The notes under the pieces are model-generated. The model saw only the letters and a list, made by a program, of their open reading frames with translations, was not told the origin of the DNA and searched no databases. Shown in pieces: positions 4,815-61,830 of a DNA stretch of 64,000 nt. The position numbers and the translations under genes are program-made. The stretch lies in contig OX597823.1 in the NCBI GenBank assembly GCA_951406725.2, positions 72,106,001-72,170,000 of the forward strand, written 5' to 3'. The stretch is from Octopus vulgaris. Lineage: Eukaryota. The stretch's first letter is position 1. Every line of letters starts with the position of its first letter.

Positions 4815-4846
<32 letters not shown>

Positions 4847-4849
<3 letters not shown>

Positions 4850-5249
4850 CGCAGGAGTGGCTGTGTGGTAAGTAGCTTGTTTACCAACCACATGGTTCCG
4901 GGTTCAGTCTCACTGCGTGGCACCTTGGGCAAGTGTCTTCTACTATAGCCTTCGGGCCGACCAAAGCCTTGTGAGTGGATTTGGTAGACGGAAACTGAAA
5001 GAAGCCCGTCGTATATATGTATATATACATATATGCGTGTGTGTGTTTGTGTGTCTGTGTTTGTCCCCCTAGCATTGCTTGACTACCGATGCTGGTGTGT
5101 TTATGTCCCCGTTACTTAGCGGTTCGGCAAAAGAGACCGATAGAATAAGTACTGGGCTTACAAAAGAATAAGTCCCGGGATCGATTTGCTCGATTAAAGG
5201 TGGTGCTCCAGCATGGCCGCAGTAAAAGAGTAAAGAGTAAAAGAGTAAA
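4847..5249 (+). mobile_element. tRNA-derived SINE, family A (CORE-like, internal microsatellite), full length
   Basis: A box TGGCTGTGTGG, B box GGTTCAGTCTC, CORE-like CCTTGGGCAAGT, internal (TA)/(TG) tract, AGTAAAAG tail; multiple copies in window. Confidence 0.9.
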
Positions 5250-5346
5250 TATAATATATATATATATACACGTATATATGTGTGTGTGTTTGTGCATACA
5301 TACATATATATATATGTATATATATGTAAGTATGTATATATGTATG

Positions 5347-12273: not shown

Positions 12274-12874
12274 TATTTCTTTACTGCCCACAAGGAGATA
12301 CACACAGAGGGGACAAACAAGGACAGACAAACGGATTAAGTCAATTATATCGACCCCGGTGCGCAACTAGTACTTATTTAATCGACCCCGAAAGGATGAA
12401 AGGCAAAGTCGATCTCAGCGGAATTTGAGCTCAGAACATAGCAGCAGACAAAATACATATTTCTTTACTACCCACAAGAGGCTAAACACAGAGAGGACAA
12501 ACAAGGACAGACAAACGGATTAAGTCGATTATATCGACCCCTGTGCGTAACTGGTACTTATTTAATCGACCCCGAAAGGATGAAAGGCAAAGTCGACCTC
12601 GGCAGAATTTGAACTAAGAACGTAACGGCAGACGAAATACCTATTTCTTTACTACCAACAAGGGGCTAAACACAGGGAGGACAAACAAGGACAGACAAAC
12701 GAATTAAGTCGATTATATCGACCCCAGTGCGTAACTGGTACTTATTTAATCGACCCCGAAAGGATGAAAGGCAAAGTCGACCTCGGCGGAATTTGAACTC
12801 AGAACGTAACGGCAGACGAAATACCGCTAAGCATTTCACCCGGCATGATAACGTTTCTGCCAGCTCACTGCCTT
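12274..12874 (-). mobile_element. Family B SINE head-to-tail trimer (184-bp period) with 23-bp TSD
   Basis: Units start at 12274, 12458 and 12642 on the + strand; only the last carries the A-box head. Flanking direct repeats at 12252-12274 and 12875-12897 (21/23). GCCTTTCATCCTTTCGGGGTCGAT resembles the Deu/Nin SINE domain. Confidence 0.9.
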
Positions 12875-15249: not shown

Positions 15250-15320
15250 TGCATCGGCCGGGAATCGAACCCGGGCCGCCCGCGTGGCAGGCGAGCATTC
15301 TACCACTGAACCACCGATGC
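15250..15320 (-). tRNA. tRNA-Gly (anticodon GCC)
   Basis: GCATCGGTGGTTCAGTGGTAGAATGCTCGCCTGCCACGCGGGCGGCCCGGGTTCGATTCCCGGCCGATGCA: canonical 71-nt cloverleaf, perfect acceptor stem, A and B boxes, TA-rich sequence about 25-45 nt upstream. Confidence 0.98.
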
Positions 15321-17913: not shown

Positions 17914-17995
17914 TGAACTCGGAATCTTGGTTAAGAACGCGGGCTTCTAATCCCAACATTCCTAGTTAGATTCCAGGCAGTGACCTGAATAGTAA
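17914..17995 (+). repeat. Left arm of ~81-bp inverted repeat; tRNA-like head followed by (TAA)n
   Basis: Reverse complement of 20955-21035 with about 6 mismatches; ggttaaga and gttagattcc resemble A/B boxes. Confidence 0.85.
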
Positions 17996-17997
17996 TG

Positions 17998-18080
<83 letters not shown>

Positions 18081-18081
<1 letters not shown>

Positions 18082-20837
18082 TATGTTTGACTTTTGCTTT
18101 ATATTTGTACAAGTTGGCTCCAAGTCTCACCCAGAGACCTCAAGAGACAACAGGGTTGGAAGTTCATGTTGTTGTTATGCCTAGTGTGCCATATATTTGG
18201 GGGGTGGGGATGTTGTACTAATGAATGTCTAAAAAAAAAAAGTTTTTTTTTTTTTTTTTTTTTTTTAAACCGAAAATTATGTTTGTTTTAAACCTTGAGA
18301 TTACATAGAGAGTATTTTGCGTAGGATATGAGCAGTTCCCATGAGCACTATCTTTTGAACTTCTGCCATTTTGGGGTTTCCTGGTATCTGAGTTAGGTAG
18401 CTATCAGCCCCTTTTGCTATCATTCCCAGGGCACCTATGACAACAGGTATTGTTTTAGTCTTCAGCTTCCACATTTTGCTGATTTCTATTTCAAGATCTT
18501 TATATTTGCTCAGTTTTTGGTAGGTCTTGACAGATACGTTTATATCGATTGGGACAGTCATATCAATGAGGAGGCATGTTCTTTGTTTGAAGTTTTTCAA
18601 TATGATGTCTGGCCTATTTGCATCTATCTTCCTGTCAGTTTGAATGGTGAAGTTCCAGAGGAGTGAGATGTGGTCATTTTCAAGCACTGGGGGTGGTTTG
18701 TGTTCCCACCAGTTTTTTTCATGGGGCAAATCCAGGTTTTTACAGATTACCCAGTGAATATATTGTGCAGCTCTATCGTGCCTGTTGAGATACTCTGTAG
18801 GCGCTAGAAGACTGCACTTGGAGACCACATGGTCAATGGTTTCATTTTGTTGCTTGCATACACGACACGTTGGACTGCTTCTGATCTTTAATATGTTGGC
18901 CTGGTAGTTTCTTGTTGGTAGGCATTGATCTTGAGCTGCTATGATAAACCCCTCTGTTTCAGATTTTAAGCCAGAGGCCATTAGCCATTGATGGGTCAGG
19001 GCTTTGTCGATATCTGCATTATTCGCTCTCTTTGGGTATTTGCCATAGAGAGGTTTTTCTTGCCATTTATTATTCAGAATATCTAAGGCCGCAGTTTTGG
19101 CACGGGTTTTCATGCGCCTAGCTTTTTCTGTGCTTGTTTCTTGTATATCTATCTCTAATTCCGAAATTGGTTGTATTCGGAGTTCACTTAGATATTCCTT
19201 TGCCTGTTTTGTGACTGAGTATGATGCTTTCTTGTTTTCATGTTTTGAGACAAGTTTTAGCATCCAGTCCTCAGAGTTTTTCAGGTAGGTGTCTAGGCCA
19301 ATTGTAGCAATCTTCATTGTTATTGCCAGTTGCAAAAGACCACGGCCTCCTCTTTTCTTGGCAGATAGAGTCGTTCTGTATCTGCCTTAGGGTGGTGCAT
19401 TCTATGCATTGTCAACAGTTTCCTTATTTTTCTGTCGAGCTGACATATTTCAGTAATTGACCAGTTAACAATATTGAAACTGTAAGTCACGACTGGTATA
19501 GCTAATGCATTGATTGCTTCGATCCTGTTTCTTGCATTCAGCTCTGTCTTGAGTATTGCTCTCACTCTTCGATAGCATTCTCTCCTGATCCTTTCCTTCA
19601 TCTCTGAATGCCTTATTCCGTTCCCTTCAATTATCCCTAGGTACTTGTAGCTCTCCGCTGGGTCTAGTTCTTTTATGACATTCTGTTGGTCAAGGTTAAC
19701 GTTAGATGTTTCTGTCATTTTTCCTTTGATAAAGGTAGCCTTTGCACATTTATCGAGGCCGAATTGCATTCTGATGTCGTCACTGAATTGTTTGACTATC
19801 GCTAGTAAGCCCTTGAGTTGTTGATCATTTTTTGCAAAAGCTTTAAATCATCCATGTAAACGAGATGATTTATATTTTTATCAAACATTTTATACCCGTA
19901 CTGCGCATCATTGAGCAGCTTTGAGAGAGGTATTAAGGATAAACAAAAGAGGAGTGGTGACAGTGAGTCACCCTGGAAAATGCCACACGAAATTTTTACA
20001 TCACCAGCATTTAGGGATTCACTGTCACTGTTCAGAGTTAGTGTGGTTCTCCATGATCTCATACTTACAGTCAAGAAGTTTCGCAGAGTTGGTGCTATCT
20101 TATACATTTCAAGGCATTCCCTAATCCAGCTATGTGGTAGGCTATCAAAAGCCTTTTTATAGTCTATCCAGGCTATTGATAAGTTTTTGTGTCGTTTGTG
20201 ACAATCTTCTAAGATCATCTTATTGATGAGTAGTTGGTCTTTACAGCCGTAGGATCCACGTTTACATCCTTTCTGTTCATTAGGGAATATGCTGCTGTCT
20301 GTTAAAAAACTATAGGTATATTCCGTCAGGACAGATGTTAGTGTTTTGTACATAGTTGTTAAGCAGGTTATGGGTCTATAGTTTTTTGGTTCATTTGTTT
20401 CTTCACTTTTTGGAAGCAGGAATGTTAACCCATTAACTAGCCAAGGAGGCATCCTACTAGGGTGTTGCAAAACATCATTGTACAGTTCTGTTAGCAGTTC
20501 ATGGCTCTCTGGGAAGGCATTCAGCCAGAAGTTAGGAATTTTATCCTTTCCTGGAGACTTCCATTTGCTTGACCTCCTGAGAGCAGATCTTATATCTTCT
20601 ACCTTGACACCCTCCCACTTTTGCTCTTCTAAGGGGTCCAGTTCTGTAGATATTCTGTCAATCCAGGGGGCCTTTTCGTTGTGTGTTTTTTCTTCTGCCC
20701 AGATTTTATTCCAAAATCTCTGCACTTCTTCTTTTGATGGTACAGACCCTGCAGTAAACGCTGTTTTTCCTATCTTCCTGTAAAAATTCTTGGTGTTATT
20801 TTTGAACATGTTGTTGTCCTTGAAAAATCTAACACGC
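18081..20837 (-). mobile_element. R4/Dong-clade non-LTR retrotransposon (restriction-like endonuclease type), 5'-truncated, in (TAA)n
   Basis: RT motifs NYRPITCL, WIDYKKAFDS, QGDSLSPLLF, YMDDLKL; CCHC CRVC..ETIDHVVSKC; RHD, RPDI, IDMTVP, K..KY endonuclease motifs; ~220-bp 3' UTR; (TAA)n at both ends. Confidence 0.93.
18301..20836 (-). CDS. RT/zinc-knuckle/RLE polyprotein, N-terminally truncated, two 1-bp frameshifts (~19837, ~19349)
   Basis: Three ORF-track segments (20809-19802, 19769-19320, 19335-18301) join into one ~845-codon stop-free frame if one base is restored at each short homopolymer (gives KLFAKNDQQL and RKEGGRGL). Confidence 0.85.
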
Positions 20838-20860: not shown

Positions 20861-20948
<88 letters not shown>

Positions 20949-20954
20949 TACTAC

Positions 20955-21035
20955 TACTATTCAGGTCACTGCCTGGAATCAAACTAAGAATGTTGGGATT
21001 AGTAGCCTGCGTTCTTAACAAAGATTTCGAGTTCA
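20955..21035 (-). repeat. Right arm of ~81-bp inverted repeat, preceded by (TTA)n at 20838-20954
   Basis: Reverse complement of 17914-17995. Confidence 0.85.
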
Positions 21036-40300: not shown

Positions 40301-40910
40301 AGATCGTATTAACGAAATGTAGTGTAGATGTAAACAAGGAAAATATTTCGTCTCTAACAATGACGTTAATTAAAACTGTACCGTTCAGCTTCAGTCATCT
40401 ATTTTTACAATCATTCTTTTTAACTATGCACACAAATAAGGAGAAAATGAGAAATATTGTTTGAATAGTTTTACATTTATATGACTGACACAGAGCCAAG
40501 GAACAAGTGTTGGGGCGGAGGTGATCCGATACTCTAATAAAAGAAACCAAATAGGTGCAATATGAAGACAGACGCGAAAATAATTCTCTTTGAATTGGTT
40601 CATAATAATTCATAATAATTCATTCATTGATTCTTAATGTGTGATATCATTACTTAATTTATCGATTCTGGGGAATTAAATATCAAAATTAAGAATCTAA
40701 GGATATGAATCCGGAATCTACAGTCATTTAAAAACTGCAATTTTATAATTTTATTTTTAATAGATATAGAATTCCTTAGAAAGGAACCGATTCTTAATGG
40801 AGAGGAAATGCACACAATTTTTGGCAAGTAAAGCTCTATAAACATGGAATTGCAAAAGAATTAATGATAATATATTCCAGAAACACATGTCTCTAGGAAT
40901 AAGAAATATT

Positions 40911-41124
40911 CTTTTCTACTCAAAGCACAAGGCCCGAAATTTTTGGCGAGGGGGATAGTCGATTAGATCGGCCGTAGTACGCATCTGGTACTTAATTTAT
41001 CGACCCCGAAAGGATGTAAGGCAAAGTCGACCTCGGCGGAATTTGAACTCAGAACTTAAAGACATACAAAACACCCTCTAAGCATTTCGTCCGGCGTGCT
41101 AACCTTTCTGCCAGTTCGCCGCCT
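40911..41124 (-). mobile_element. Family B SINE with perfect 17-bp TSD
   Basis: TSD TAGGAATAAGAAATATT at 40894-40910 and 41125-41141. Confidence 0.9.
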
Positions 41125-41213
41125 TAGGAATAAGAAATATTACATACACATACATGCACTACAAATTCACATACACATACATGTAATACAAAGGTAAACA
41201 ATAACACAGAAAT

Positions 41214-46914: not shown

Positions 46915-47746
46915 GTGCATGCATCCCTACATTCATACATAGATACATGGCCCAAAATCTGTTTGCAGTACCAGTACTCATACTAACATTTGGACTGCTT
47001 GAATGGACGCTTGGTGAGATCCGAGCCAATGATGTGAAAGCCCGAAAGGAATGTTACAGGTATCTAAGAGTGGATGAAAATATATCTTACAATGGCACCT
47101 GTAACAAGACCCGTTTCAACAAAGGATAGTACAGCCGAATAAAGAAAATTTAGACCTCAGAACTATCTGCATTCAATAAAATAGTGGCCCACAATGTGTT
47201 TGCAGCTATTGATGTGAAAATCTGAAAAATACTAACAAGCACACATAAATTCCTTATAAACAGTGATTTAGACTGCTTCGAACTAAAACGAGAACAAGGT
47301 GGAAGTGGGTTAGCATTGATCCAAATTGTCTTTTGATGTTGCATCATCCTTTCACCTGATGAGTTATGTGATCTCTTTCATAGACTTACACCTGTTGTTT
47401 TCCATATGAAAACGTGCACCCAGAACTTTCATGCAGATCATAACTTCCCCGGAGCTATATAAATGATGTGCGTGTGTGTTTTTAAATGATTTCCATAATA
47501 AAGGTACCTCTTCAAAATGGCTCCCAGCAAACTGTCAAATTCTGTTTGAGCACTCAGCCCTGATTGCACACTTATTTATGGAAAAAACAGCGGTGCGTTT
47601 ATTAAAGTGATTACGTAAGTCTAGTTCTTATGTCATTCATAAATTCGAACCTCATTGTTTACTATAAAGAATGAGCATACTGATTTCTTTCTACTGGTAT
47701 ACATATGTACATACATAAATATATACATACATACTTACATATGTGC

Positions 47747-47888
47747 TAAGTAGATTGCTTACCAACCACATGGTTCCGAGTTCAGTCCGACTGCGTGGCA
47801 CCTTGGGCAAGTCTCTTCCACTATAGCCTCGGGCCGACCAAAGCCTTATGAGTGAATTTGGTAGACGGAAACTGAAAGAAGCCCGTCG

Positions 47889-47924
<36 letters not shown>

Positions 47925-48149
47925 GTGTGTGTGTATACGTTTGTGTGTCTGTGTTTGTCCCCCCAACATCGCTTGACAACAGATGCTGGTGTGTTTACGT
48001 CCCCGTAACTTAGCGGTTCGGCAAAAGTGAGAGATAGAATAAGTACTAGGCTTACAACGAATAAGTCCTGGGGTCGATTTGCTCGACTAAAGGCGGTGCT
48101 CCAGCATGGCCGCAATCAAATGACTGAAGCAAGTAAAAGAGTAAAAGAG

Positions 48150-48150
<1 letters not shown>
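47747..48150 (+). mobile_element. Family A SINE (slightly 5'-truncated)
   Basis: High similarity to 4866-5249. Confidence 0.9.
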
Positions 48151-48195
<45 letters not shown>

Positions 48196-52175: not shown

Positions 52176-52615
52176 AAAAAGATTGACGTAACTCTTCACA
52201 AATAAGACGAAGAGCGCGATTCGATTGTAAGATATTTTATTTGAAAATGATCTCATTTCACTCCTCTGGAGGGCCAATTTCTATTTCAAGATCTTTATAC
52301 TTGCTCAGTTTTTGGTAGGTTATGACAGATACATTCATGTCGATTGGGAGAGTCATAGTAAAGCGGAGGAATGATTTTTGTCTGAAGTCTTTCAATATAT
52401 CAGAAATATTAAATTTCTAAATATCTCATAGAGATATGTACGGTGGTGGGGCGATAGAGTGGTTGTGTACTGTCAACTTAACGTGACAGTAGGGGATTAC
52501 ACCACCGCTGTTTAGCCCTAGGAAGCATCGACGCTTCCTGTCGGCTTCGACACATTTCCTGTGTCCTTATATATTTACGAAGGGGAGACAAATACCCCCA
52601 ACAGCTAGGCCTGCA

Positions 52616-52662
52616 TCTAGAGACACGCATGTTTCAGGGTCTTTGCCCATCATCGGTCTAGA
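52616..52662 (-). ncRNA. Type I hammerhead ribozyme motif (left arm)
   Basis: TCTAGA-CCGATGA-TGGGCAAAGACCCT-GAAACATGCGTGTC-TCTAGA; distal stem I CTGC/GCAG; GUC triplet. Confidence 0.7.
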
Positions 52663-52763
52663 GTAGCAGAAGTCTGGTGATCAGTGAATAAACTTCACTG
52701 AAAATTAGATATATATATTTACGAAGTCGAGACAGATATCTTCAAGTACCAGGCTTCTGATAC

Positions 52764-52810
52764 TCTAGATCGATGATGGGCAAAGACCCTGAAACATGCG
52801 TGTCTCTAGA
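52764..52810 (+). ncRNA. Hammerhead motif (right arm), core C3 mutated to T
   Basis: Same as left arm but core reads TCGATGA; probably impaired. Confidence 0.55.
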
Positions 52811-53194
52811 TGCAGGCCTAGCTGTTGGGAGTATTTGTCTCCCCTTCGTAAATATATAAGGACACGGGAAATGTGTCGAAGCCGACAGGAAGCGTCGATG
52901 CTTCCTAGGGCTAAATAGTGGTGGTGTAATCCCCTACTGTCACGTTAAATTGACAGTACACAACCACTCTTTCAATATAATGTCTGGCCTATTCGCATCT
53001 ATCTTTCTGTCAGTTTGAACGGTGAAGTTCCAGAAGAGTGAGATGTGACCATTTTCAAACACTGGAGGTGGTTTGTGTTCCCACCAGGTTTTACCATGGT
53101 CCAGGCTTTTGCAAATTACTCAGAGAATATACTGTGTTGCTCTATCATGCTGCACATGAAGACATGATCATTGGTTTCATTTCTTCTTCTTCTT

Positions 53195-58899: not shown

Positions 58900-61830
58900 T
58901 CGCTTTAGATGGTCGATGATCGTTTGCAGTTGCTGATCTCCCTTGAGTGTATCCTTGAATGGTTGGTTGGTCTGGTATCGTCGTTAAGACTGCCCCCAAT
59001 GCTTTTTTAAAGTTTCAGGAGAAGTCTCTTTTGTATTTCAAATTTCTTTGGGTAAGTAGTTGAATACTTGAGGACCTCTGAATATTAGACTGGTACAGTA
59101 GAGTGTTATTGCTCGCGTATTTGAAGATGGTATATGTGGAAGCTGACAGTACCTGCCATTTCGAGCATTAAAATTCGTTTTAATGCCGATGTTTCGAACA
59201 TTCCTCTCCAGGATCTTCCACGCGTATGTAGTAGTATACCTCTCTCTTCGGCGTTCAAGAGAACAGAGACGCAGAGCTCTCGGGCGTTCCCAGTAATTAA
59301 GACCATTAACCGAAGTTATTTTACTGGTGAATGTTTTTTGAAACCCTTCAATTTCTTCTACGGTATCGGGTGAATTTAGAGACCAAATCTGTGGGCAGTA
59401 ATCTAATCTGCTCAGATCTAAGGTTTTCCATAGAGTTACCATAACTACCGGTTCTCTTGTCGTGAATGTTCATAGGATCCATCCTATGTGATGTCTGCAT
59501 TTAGAGGTCAGTTTGGTGATGTGGCTGAAAAAAAGATGCATTATTTGGACATGATTATTCTTAAATCCCGTATGTTGTCAGTGCTCTGAATATGGCGCCA
59601 AATAATGGGATTTGTGTCTATTCCCTCCATAATGAGGGGCCTGAAATCTTTATGTATTAAATTTCATATTATTTTTATCCACCCATTGATAAATTATATT
59701 TAGGTCATTTTGGAGTGTGATGGCATCTTCTGGAGTTTAGATAGCCATTGATATTTTTGTGTCGTCACCGTAACTCATTAGGTTGGCCGATTGCACATAT
59801 AAGCTTATGGTATGCCTGATAAGCTTATGGTAAGTAATGATAGTCCTAGAACCGTACCCTGAGATATACCACTTATTACGGGTGACTTTGCTGAGATGTA
59901 ACCGTTTTCAGCAATAGGGTGATTCCTATCCCGTAGGAAGTCAAAGAGCCATTCTCTAAGTTTTCCTATGATACTAAGATCCCTTATCCTAAGATAGATG
60001 ACTCCATGATCAACCTTGACAAACACTTTAGCAAAATCAAGGTGTAAGCAGTCAGTGTCCTTTCCATTTAGGAGATTATTGAGAATAGTGTTATGGTGTT
60101 GTTATAGTTGTGTTAGGCAACCACGTCCAGTCCGAAAACCATGCTATGTGTTATCTAAGAGGTTGTTTTCCTCAAGATATGCAGTTATTCTTTTTCGATG
60201 TTTGAGACGTGAGAGAAACTTGTCTGTAAATGTTAGCTTCTGCCCTGCTACCTCCTTTATGGATAGGTGCCATTGTTGCTTCTTTCAACAGTTCTAGGAA
60301 TATGCCGGCTTCAAGCAGCTTTAGAAATAGCAACTTTAATGGCTTAGCGACGCTGCTGTTCCATTCACTTATGGCATATTTAATGTCTCTCATTATTTTA
60401 TCATCAAGTAAGGCCGCGAGCTGGCAGAAACATTTGCACGCCAGGCGAAATGTTTAGCTATATTTTGTCTGTTTTTACATTCTGAGTTCAAATTCCGCCG
60501 AGGTCGACTTTGCCTTTCATCCTTTTGGGGTCGATAAATTAAGAACCAGTTGCGTACTGACGTCGACCTAATCGACTGGCCTTCCTCCCAAAAACTTCGA
60601 GCCTTGTGCCTAGAGTAGAAAATATTTGTTAGCACGCAAAGCGTCTGTCTTTGCGTTCTGAGTTTAAATGCCACCGGAGTCGACTTTGCCTTTCATTCTT
60701 TCGGGATCAGTAAAATAAGTATCAGTTGAACACAGGTGTCGACTTACCCCCTCCCTCGAAATAACTGGCCTTGTTCCATACAATCCGATTGCTCATACTG
60801 TTTTTAAAGTATCAACAATCTCAACTCCAAACCTATCATTCAAGGGCATTATATCTATGTGATATTGATGTTCGTGCTTGTTTTTCTGTGATGGTCAGGT
60901 TTGCATTTTTAATATGTTTTTGATACATCATCGTTGAGTTTTTTTGCTGTGGAGATATTTCGTTGCTCCATCGGTGCATCTTTTATAGGTTTTAATTCTT
61001 TAATTGTTTTCAGATTGCGATTATCGTCATGTTTATGATTTCTACCATTAAAATTTCTTATTTATCTGCTTTTTCCATATTTATTTTATTCCTATTTATT
61101 GGGGTTTTGTGGTTCTCTTACTGTTTTTGTTGATCCGTATCCTGTTGTTGTATTTTAGTTGTTCCCAGGCATTCATTCTAACTCCGTGGCTTGCATGCAC
61201 AATGTCTTTATTTTCTTTTTTATATTTATATAAAAAAAATTTTTTACATGTTCATTATATGCGTTTTCGCTACGTATCCTTCTTGTTAAATGTTATATTT
61301 CAATGTTTCGATATATTTGACTTTCAGAATATTTGATGCATTTTTAAAGTTTGCTCGTCTGCGGTAATTATTCCTGTCATCCTCATCCACCACTTCCTTC
61401 TCCTCCTCGTCGTCGTCGTCTTCGATCTCCTCCTCCTCCTCTTCGTCTTCGTTCTCTTCCTCCGTCCACTTCCTCCTCTCCGTCCTCTTCTTCCTCTCCG
61501 CCCTCTTCCTCCTCCTCCTCACCACCACCACCACCACAACCACTTTTACCCAGGATGTTGGTAGTTCCAAGAAGTACCGAGATCTGTAAAATTCAATGAT
61601 TTGAATGACGTTAAATTTGTTTGGAAAGGAACCAAGGCCATCAATACTAATTGAAATAACTTTACTTTCTTCTTGAAAGTATTCAGTAACTTCATTGTAA
61701 GTTTTAACTTGACTACCAAGCAGAGCTCTGTGGGCTTTGCATATATGGATCATTTTGTTTTGGTTTTGTATTTTCCATTCTGTTGACAGTATTATGCGCA
61801 CTGTCTATACAATGTTTTATAGAGCTGTGT
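58900..61830 (-). pseudogene. Decayed CR1/L2-type LINE ORF2 (RT, probable endonuclease remnant), interrupted by SINEs and a simple repeat
   Basis: PIHKGGSRAEANIYRQVSLTS, KVDHG, SGISQGTVLG, YGDDTKI, SRLDYCPQIWS, LNYWER..L.L.SLERRRERY over 59040-60390; upstream extension to ~61830 is less certain. Confidence 0.8.
60410..60775 (+). mobile_element. Two tandem family B SINEs inserted in the LINE
   Basis: aaggccgcgagctggcagaa...gactttgcctttcatcc...gccttgtgcctagagtagaaa, then a second truncated copy. Confidence 0.85.

Follow-up and report, generated by a model that had tools for sequence, protein, structure and literature searches.

A palindromic insertion interrupts an old LINE relic in the 64,000-nt stretch of Octopus vulgaris DNA analysed here (GCA_951406725.2, contig OX597823.1, positions 72,106,001 to 72,170,000; hereafter the window). 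Inverted pairs of this type resemble MITEs and would be misfiled in annotation. The question is whether the locus is such an element or a product of reverse transcription, and how its two arms came to face each other. We consider it quite probable that one insertion consists of two 5'-truncated copies, placed head to head, of that end of an abundant repeat which bears the hammerhead. This end is likely the pLTR of a Penelope-like element (PLE), and both nicked strands likely primed reverse transcription. The formation of tandem and inverted PLE insertions is still an open question (PMC8557442 and PMC3846280).

Structure of the insertion and its target site

The features of the locus are summarized in Table 1. 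The insert (52400–52967, 568 bp) lies between exact 12-bp repeats, which are the sole exact match of at least 8 nt between the two end regions; the chance expectation for this match is approximately 4 × 10^-4 (100 × 50 offsets used). The arms (52456–52678 and 52748–52970) are 223 nt each and differ at 8 sites, 7 of which are transitions. A repeat finder extended them to 226 nt at 96% identity, with 69 nt between them. Since the arm homology extends 3 nt into the right repeat (3-nt microhomology), the target site duplication (TSD) is 9–12 bp and the tail is 56–59 bp. The tail is one-sided and is longer than the 30–40 bp printed for PLEs. The left copy carries the tail and lacks the 69 nt, while the right copy carries the 69 nt upstream and lacks the tail. 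The target site is AT-rich (10 of the 12 positions of the TSD are A or T at this locus). A second copy of the insert was not found elsewhere in the 64-kb window.

An earlier note on this DNA, made from the letters alone, had described arms of ~223 bp, a 56-bp tail on the left, and an exact 12-bp TSD. These dimensions were confirmed, with the latitude of 3 nt given above. The 69-bp spacer of the same note is correct in size; it is not a neutral spacer, however, but belongs to the right copy, of which it forms the upstream part.

Table 1. Features of the inverted pair and of its host LINE relic (positions in the window).
Feature	Position	Strand	Remark
Host LINE relic, left part	52277–52399	-	Paralog ORF aa 262–302, C-terminal endonuclease-like region; tblastn, blastn 87%
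Left TSD, 12 bp, host LINE sequence	52388–52399		Empty site in the paralog and in contigs of 4 of 4 runs
56-nt 3' tail, left copy only	52400–52455	-	Common 3' terminus of the family at ~52399–52404
Left copy, pLTR-like end, minus-strand sense	52456–52678	-	5'-truncated 16 nt upstream of the hammerhead
AUG frame starting at core position A9, closed in both arms	52567–52650	-	
Left type I hammerhead-like motif	52616–52662	-	Descriptor match; cleavage predicted between 52622 and 52621
69-nt centre, upstream part of the right copy	52679–52747	+	8-bp hairpin at its start, on the inversion junction
Long imperfect stem extending hammerhead stem I, 41 pairs (5 G-U)	52712–52858	+	Predicted fold
Right copy, plus-strand sense	52748–52967	+	Tail-less end lies in A/C-rich sequence that follows a stem-loop
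Right type I hammerhead-like motif	52764–52810	+	Predicted cut between 52804 and 52805
Right TSD	52968–52979		Exact 12-bp match
Host LINE relic, right part	52968–53152	-	Paralog ORF aa 202–266; blastn 86%

Without the insert, the flanks align with a LINE paralog at 18482–18781 (257 of 300 nt, 86%), gapless at the insertion point. The empty site in the paralog is 18593–18604, identical at 10 of 12 positions, which is one base off the ~18592–18603 proposed in the earlier note. Public sequencing data were also considered. Part of the stretch is contained in 20 of 24 runs (11 studies, four organisms), three of which hold at least half of the sampled words; the source organism of the window may differ from the organisms of the runs. 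Contigs of 4 of the 24 runs, aligned to 52185–52747 (left flank, tail, left arm, and centre), provide the evidence on the family. The joints, pieces, and variants quoted below are those among the matches listed, and most joints rest on one contig each. The empty site was present in contigs of 4 of 4 runs, in which 52399 continues directly into right-flank sequence. Judged by sequence divergence, the insert is younger than the host relic because the arms are 3.6% apart and the relic is 14% from its paralog.

The insert splits the C-terminal coding region of the LINE at aa 262–266. The paralog (18301–20836, minus strand) extends over three frames and shows Pfam matches to RT and zf-RVT, together with a C-terminal zinc-knuckle/endonuclease-like region. 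Relatives of this LINE in shrimp, fish, cnidarians, and starfish are 46–61% identical, and none is named to clade. The host relic may be an R4/Dong LINE, as the earlier note has it; the RT and zf-RVT domains and the (TAA)n flanks of the LINE are consistent with this assignment. A different inverted repeat (17914–18078 and 20871–21035; 165 nt aligned, 84%, ~95 nt of it non-microsatellite), possibly another foldback element, surrounds the near-complete paralog, which lies in its (TAA)n/(TTA)n centre. At the left edge of the relic, 52240–52270 is a 31-nt inverted copy of 53029–53059 (87%), a small inversion at the truncation point.

Hammerhead motifs and coding capacity

A relaxed type I hammerhead descriptor was run on both strands of the 64 kb and gave exactly two matches, one in each arm (Table 1). 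In comparison, 40 block-wise dinucleotide shuffles gave 3 matches, or 0.075 per shuffle. The two outward-facing hammerheads of the earlier note thus stand as predicted type I-like motifs. Rfam did not report a hammerhead, either in the whole window at the gathering threshold or in 52300–53100 at E ≤ 10, and its SCARNA7 match was dismissed as a chance hit (19 bits vs 65). The cores depart from the canonical set (C3, U4, G5, A6, G8, A9, G12–A14, A15.1–U16.1, and H17): U4C is present in both arms, and the right arm also carries C3U. A 2017 study by Lunse et al. is said to deal with PLE hammerhead variants and may already cover U4C and C3U cores.

Apart from the C3U of the right one, the two motifs are built alike. 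Both have a 6-bp palindromic stem I and a self-complementary stem III, and their 3-bp stem II is made up of G-C pairs with U-U or G-U at its base. Each arm, as a terminal repeat, carries a type I hammerhead-like motif with a small palindromic helix III, as PLEs do. The minimal or atypical PLE hammerheads described in PMC4209133 resemble the present motifs in being of type I, with a small palindromic helix III, an extra nucleotide after A9, and a dimer-type fold; they act as dimers and cleave weakly. The present motifs differ from them in U4C in both arms, C3U in the right arm, a short stem II that is closed by U-U or G-U, and a stem I extended by ~41 pairs. According to the same source, dual minimal hammerheads lie on opposite strands, 100–700 bp apart, in Schistosoma (PMC4209133). 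U4C is a natural variant that lowers activity in vitro (PMC3088659), and a U-U base of a short stem II, one of the two forms seen here, is known in axolotl HHR_Amex2 (PMC7229834).

The active fold is predicted to occupy only 10^-3 to 10^-4 of the ensemble of the monomer, and in the dimer it is the minimum-energy cofold (-27.9 vs 2 × -9.1). The self-complementarity of stem III is kept in family variants, namely 52626 C>T in 4 of 4 runs and a shorter palindromic variant in one X5 contig. On the plus strand, the 3' half of the centre pairs with sequence downstream of the right hammerhead (Table 1), and the plus unit 52679–52967 has a fold z of -7.2, with 0 of 200 shuffles being as stable. In a head-to-head pair, transcription always passes through the antisense arm ahead of the sense ribozyme. 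Imposing the ribozyme fold on read-through RNA would cost a predicted 83–86 kcal/mol, so that cleavage of a read-through transcript is not expected. The earlier note had envisaged a read-through RNA with one sense ribozyme plus a long hairpin; the ribozyme instead lies inside the hairpin, where it is predicted to be buried. On the reading preferred here, the hammerheads are passengers of the pLTR, with an active fold predicted only as dimers and blocked in read-through RNA. Because of this predicted behaviour, the present copy is likely inert apart from being a potential source of 223-bp dsRNA.

The AUG at core position A9 opens a frame that reaches a stop after 27 codons in either arm; from the hammerhead to the tail, all frames are interrupted. 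The early stop may reflect a non-coding source, an intron, or decay. In Adineta vaga and in Poseidon of Anolis carolinensis (PAc), in contrast, the ORF starts in the pLTR and runs through the tail. Frameshifting indels are common to many copies of the family: a 2-nt insertion behind 52567 (3–9% of depth), a 1-nt loss at 52496 (4–7% of depth, three runs), and a 7-nt insertion behind 52490 (42–53 loose-end contigs among the matches listed, three runs). Therefore, the region is non-coding in at least some sources.

Pfam, at the curated cut-off, was applied to 144 stop-to-stop window frames (142 of 291 non-repetitive frames of at least 45 aa, plus two arm frames) and gave no match among them; it thus identified neither an RT or GIY-YIG domain linked to the family nor a host gene around the locus. 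When the AUG frame, read through its stop, was compared with "longer" proteins, a weak search, none of the 73 candidates reached E ≤ 0.01. The second arm frame (50 aa) had 0 matches among 1.84 billion protein representatives. The exact tail pattern had 0 loci in metagenome, genome, and viral contigs, and the exact arm pattern had 0 in metagenome contigs. The centre contains a TATA-like run similar to the pLTR promoter of Adineta; it was rejected as evidence because the motif occurs 658 times in the window.

Depth and junctions of the repeat family

Summed contig depth peaks over the tail and outer arm. It falls 7–28-fold by the hammerhead (tail/hammerhead ratios of 23, 7, 10, and 28 in the four runs) and 22–41-fold by the centre (tail/centre ratios of 34, 22, 25, and 41). 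Part of this fall is subfamily divergence; contigs continue past 52570–52572 with arm-like, diverged letters. The 3' end is fixed, with the listed pieces beginning at 52399, 52401, 52402, 52403, and 52404, one of them with 503 nt of flank. The family thus displays the fixed 3' end and heavy 5' truncation of PLEs, the latter partly confounded by subfamily divergence. Depth divided by long-piece depth gives ~1.1–1.5 × 10^4 tail ends in three large runs, bearing in mind that summed contig depth is not equal to copy number. Depth drops to half across the hammerhead's 5' edge in all four runs, and two contigs start near the cut site (52620 and 52625, 1–4 nt from the predicted cut). Neither was accepted as evidence of cleavage; the halving is confounded by the reference's own junction, and the starts are two single contigs. 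The change spectrum of the X13 contigs, which are RNA only by guess, was no different from that of the DNA runs.

The inner junctions vary among copies; the geometry assigned to them from contigs is an interpretive reading. Inversion-equivalent junctions on opposite strands occur elsewhere at 52433/52625, 52490/52529, and 52529/52570, and further ones at 52553>52715 and 52607>52709. Direct go-back joints also vary (52549>52501 and 52620>52503). An inverted 5'-truncated copy accompanied by partial tandems with variable junctions is the pattern of PLEs, here mostly with one contig per joint. One 2,104-nt X1 contig departs from the family at 52459, near the tail-less end, and a TA run ahead of 52395 terminates two X13 contigs. 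The centre (plus strand) is joined to the arm in sense at opposite-strand joints 52670–52676/52740–52744 in 4 of 4 runs, at depths of up to 310. Because contigs run from the centre into the arm in this manner, the order of the family unit is centre, hammerhead, arm, and tail. A different joint, 52609/52741, was found in one contig each of X1, X3, and X5; here the centre meets the arm without the hammerhead region, and this copy has apparently lost the tip of the long stem.

These data bear on whether the locus is a MITE or a Mutator/Foldback-like DNA transposon with long inverted ends and a chance hammerhead-like motif. The long inverted arms, lack of coding capacity, 9–12-bp TSD, and high abundance agree with such an element, and MITEs as described in PMC8969392 are likewise short and non-coding, with inverted arms, a TSD, and many copies. 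However, a MITE predicts a tail depth close to the centre depth and junctions at fixed places, both of which the data above contradict. Moreover, the ends of the locus are asymmetrical by 56 nt, the family shows a 5'-truncation gradient and a variable centre, direct joints occur, and the hammerhead is of the dimer type with conserved stem III palindromy. Contig depth and junctions largely refute the MITE reading, which we regard as very improbable. The locus, a young inverted-pair stub, is very likely a PLE insertion, and it behaves like one. The earlier note had preferred a Penelope-type inverted-pLTR retro-insertion to a MITE, and the fixed tail end, steep 5' depth fall, and variable inner junctions support this preference. 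That note had also proposed the palindrome itself as an undescribed element. This proposal was not supported: the inner junction differs between copies, and the layout is already printed (PMC3846280, PMC8557442, and PMC4209133).

A false palindrome may also arise when an assembler misjoins a high-copy repeat. Among the matches listed, no contig spans 52185–52747 or bridges the LINE-tail junction, and the best run contains only 0.58 of the sampled words. However, another 12,930 pieces lie beyond those listed, and contigs drop rare variants. The 8 differences between the arms and the exact TSD with its empty site in the paralog fit a real insertion, and similar junctions occur in other contigs. 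An assembly artefact is hardly credible on this evidence.

The source of the two copies is a separate issue. A non-coding, non-autonomous pLTR derivative (retrozyme-like, ~350 nt or longer) may have been moved in trans by a Penelope-like RT, with the locus as an inverted-pair insertion of it. This reading differs from the one preferred above only in the source, and the two are not exclusive; we find it possible, if somewhat doubtful. The absence of a frame open from the hammerhead through the tail and the shared frameshifting indels favour it, although the pLTR, 5'-UTR, or intron of an autonomous element may be non-coding too. The plus unit is very stably folded (see above), as are retrozyme RNAs (PMC7229834), and the preprint 10.64898/2026.07.22.740005 derives retrozymes from pLTRs. 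Non-LTR retrozymes resemble the locus further in being related to pLTRs and in their unit, which is non-coding, ~350 nt long, and highly self-paired and carries one type I hammerhead (PMC7229834; 10.64898/2026.07.22.740005). According to the same two sources, they are tandem and pLTR-derived. In contrast, the locus is an inverted pair with no tandem array, and most copies of the family are 3' stubs that lack the ribozyme. In one X1 contig, positions 52402 and 52673 are linked on opposite strands, which may be read as tail-to-centre tandem continuity; however, the joint rests on this single contig, has single-copy depth (31.7), and is also readable as a deletion. The depth of the hammerhead and centre is far below that of the tail, and whole-monomer arrays are therefore ruled out as the main form. 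A diverged-subfamily X13 contig (712 nt; 52491–52572) extends 613 nt past 52572 on the 5' side, against 175 nt in the present unit, which also counts against this reading. This contig could contain the upstream sequence of the parent. A retrozyme array as such was rejected: depth should then be even along the monomer and the tail-to-start joint strong, but neither was found, and the sole candidate for that joint among the matches listed, 52402/52673, is one ambiguous contig.

Formation of the inverted pair

The general scheme of PLE insertions in PMC8557442 (Fig. 2) includes an inverted 5'-truncated copy with a one-sided 30–40-bp tail, and the inverted layout also appears in PMC8969392. The closest parallels are Pen2 and Pen2a of Adineta vaga, with head-to-head inverted pLTRs of ~200 bp, one of which is shorter at its 5' end, a one-sided tail, a junction palindrome, and insertion into a non-LTR retrotransposon (PMC3846280). 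Their TSD is 8–10 bp, compared with 9–12 bp here. Unlike Pen2/Pen2a, the present locus has no ORF between the arms, and its tail is 56–59 nt rather than ~31 nt (PMC3846280).

PAc provides biochemical counterparts. The PAc protein cuts and extends both strands, two RT start sites bound the tail, one start is A/C-rich, and the hammerhead is dispensable for insertion in vitro (PMC11167929). The locus resembles PAc in an AUG at the start of hammerhead stem II, an AT-rich target, an A/C-rich site beside a stem-loop at the tail-less end, and two 3' termini that bound the tail (PMC11167929). In PAc, the ORF continues through the tail and RT starts 111–118 nt into it (PMC11167929), whereas the termini of the locus are ~195 and ~251 nt from the AUG, with no frame open.

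From these features, we infer the following course of events. A GIY-YIG endonuclease would have nicked an AT-rich site in the old LINE relic on both strands, 9–12 nt apart. One 3' end may then have primed copying from the end of the tail, and the other from the A/C-rich site 56–59 nt further in. Both cDNAs would have stopped early, after ~280 and ~290 nt, and would have been joined 5'-to-5', and gap filling would have produced the TSD. Each arm carries sequence that the other lacks; therefore, neither is a plain fold-back copy of the other, and priming on both nicked strands is favoured over fold-back copying.

In fold-back copying, an element of Penelope-like origin would have gained its second arm when one cDNA or an antisense template primed itself, and the loss of the right tail would have followed. 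The 8-bp hairpin at the junction suits this route, and self-priming at junction palindromes is favoured in PMC3846280. Two bases rare in the family are also common to both arms: at 52467, ~99% of reads carry another base, and at 52548, ~92–95% do so. These rare bases imply one source lineage or homogenised arms. Furthermore, the 3-nt microhomology at the right end indicates that the tail-less end could represent a later microhomology deletion, which would reopen fold-back copying. Such a route, however, requires a further, exact deletion that leaves the TSD intact. PLEs ordinarily give rise to tail-less ends (PMC11167929 and PMC8557442), and the X1 contig that departs at 52459 hints at another tail-less copy. 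Fold-back copying thus appears unlikely to us, and we retain priming on both nicked strands as the preferred explanation.

The locus is a clean case in that each arm carries sequence the other lacks, as expected from priming of both target strands. One locus alone contributes little, and an abundant young family would allow twin priming to be counted genome-wide. In O. vulgaris, 30 Penelope families have been active recently (PMC13282606, Table 1). A literature search, with Repbase/Dfam, subscription papers, and bioRxiv supplements outside its scope, found no description of this family or of octopus hammerheads. We speculate, with considerable reservation, that the family is a non-autonomous, non-coding pLTR derivative present as ~10^4 dispersed 3' stubs (a crude depth ratio) without retrozyme arrays, with a 40-pair rod tipped by a U4C dimer-type hammerhead and with inverted pairs, one arm bearing the tail and the other the longer 5' part, that record twin priming from the two RT start sites in vivo. 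If so, Penelope elements would have a SINE-like partner in this family, which would also offer a large natural data set on the formation of PLE inversions.

Apart from the locus, the window contains a tRNA gene (15250–15320, minus strand; Rfam 66.7 bits), a 184-bp tandem repeat (12274–12825; 93%), and two interspersed repeat families with many window copies (e.g., 4820–5279 and 47698–48174 for one, and 40900–41126 and 60409–60631 for the other).
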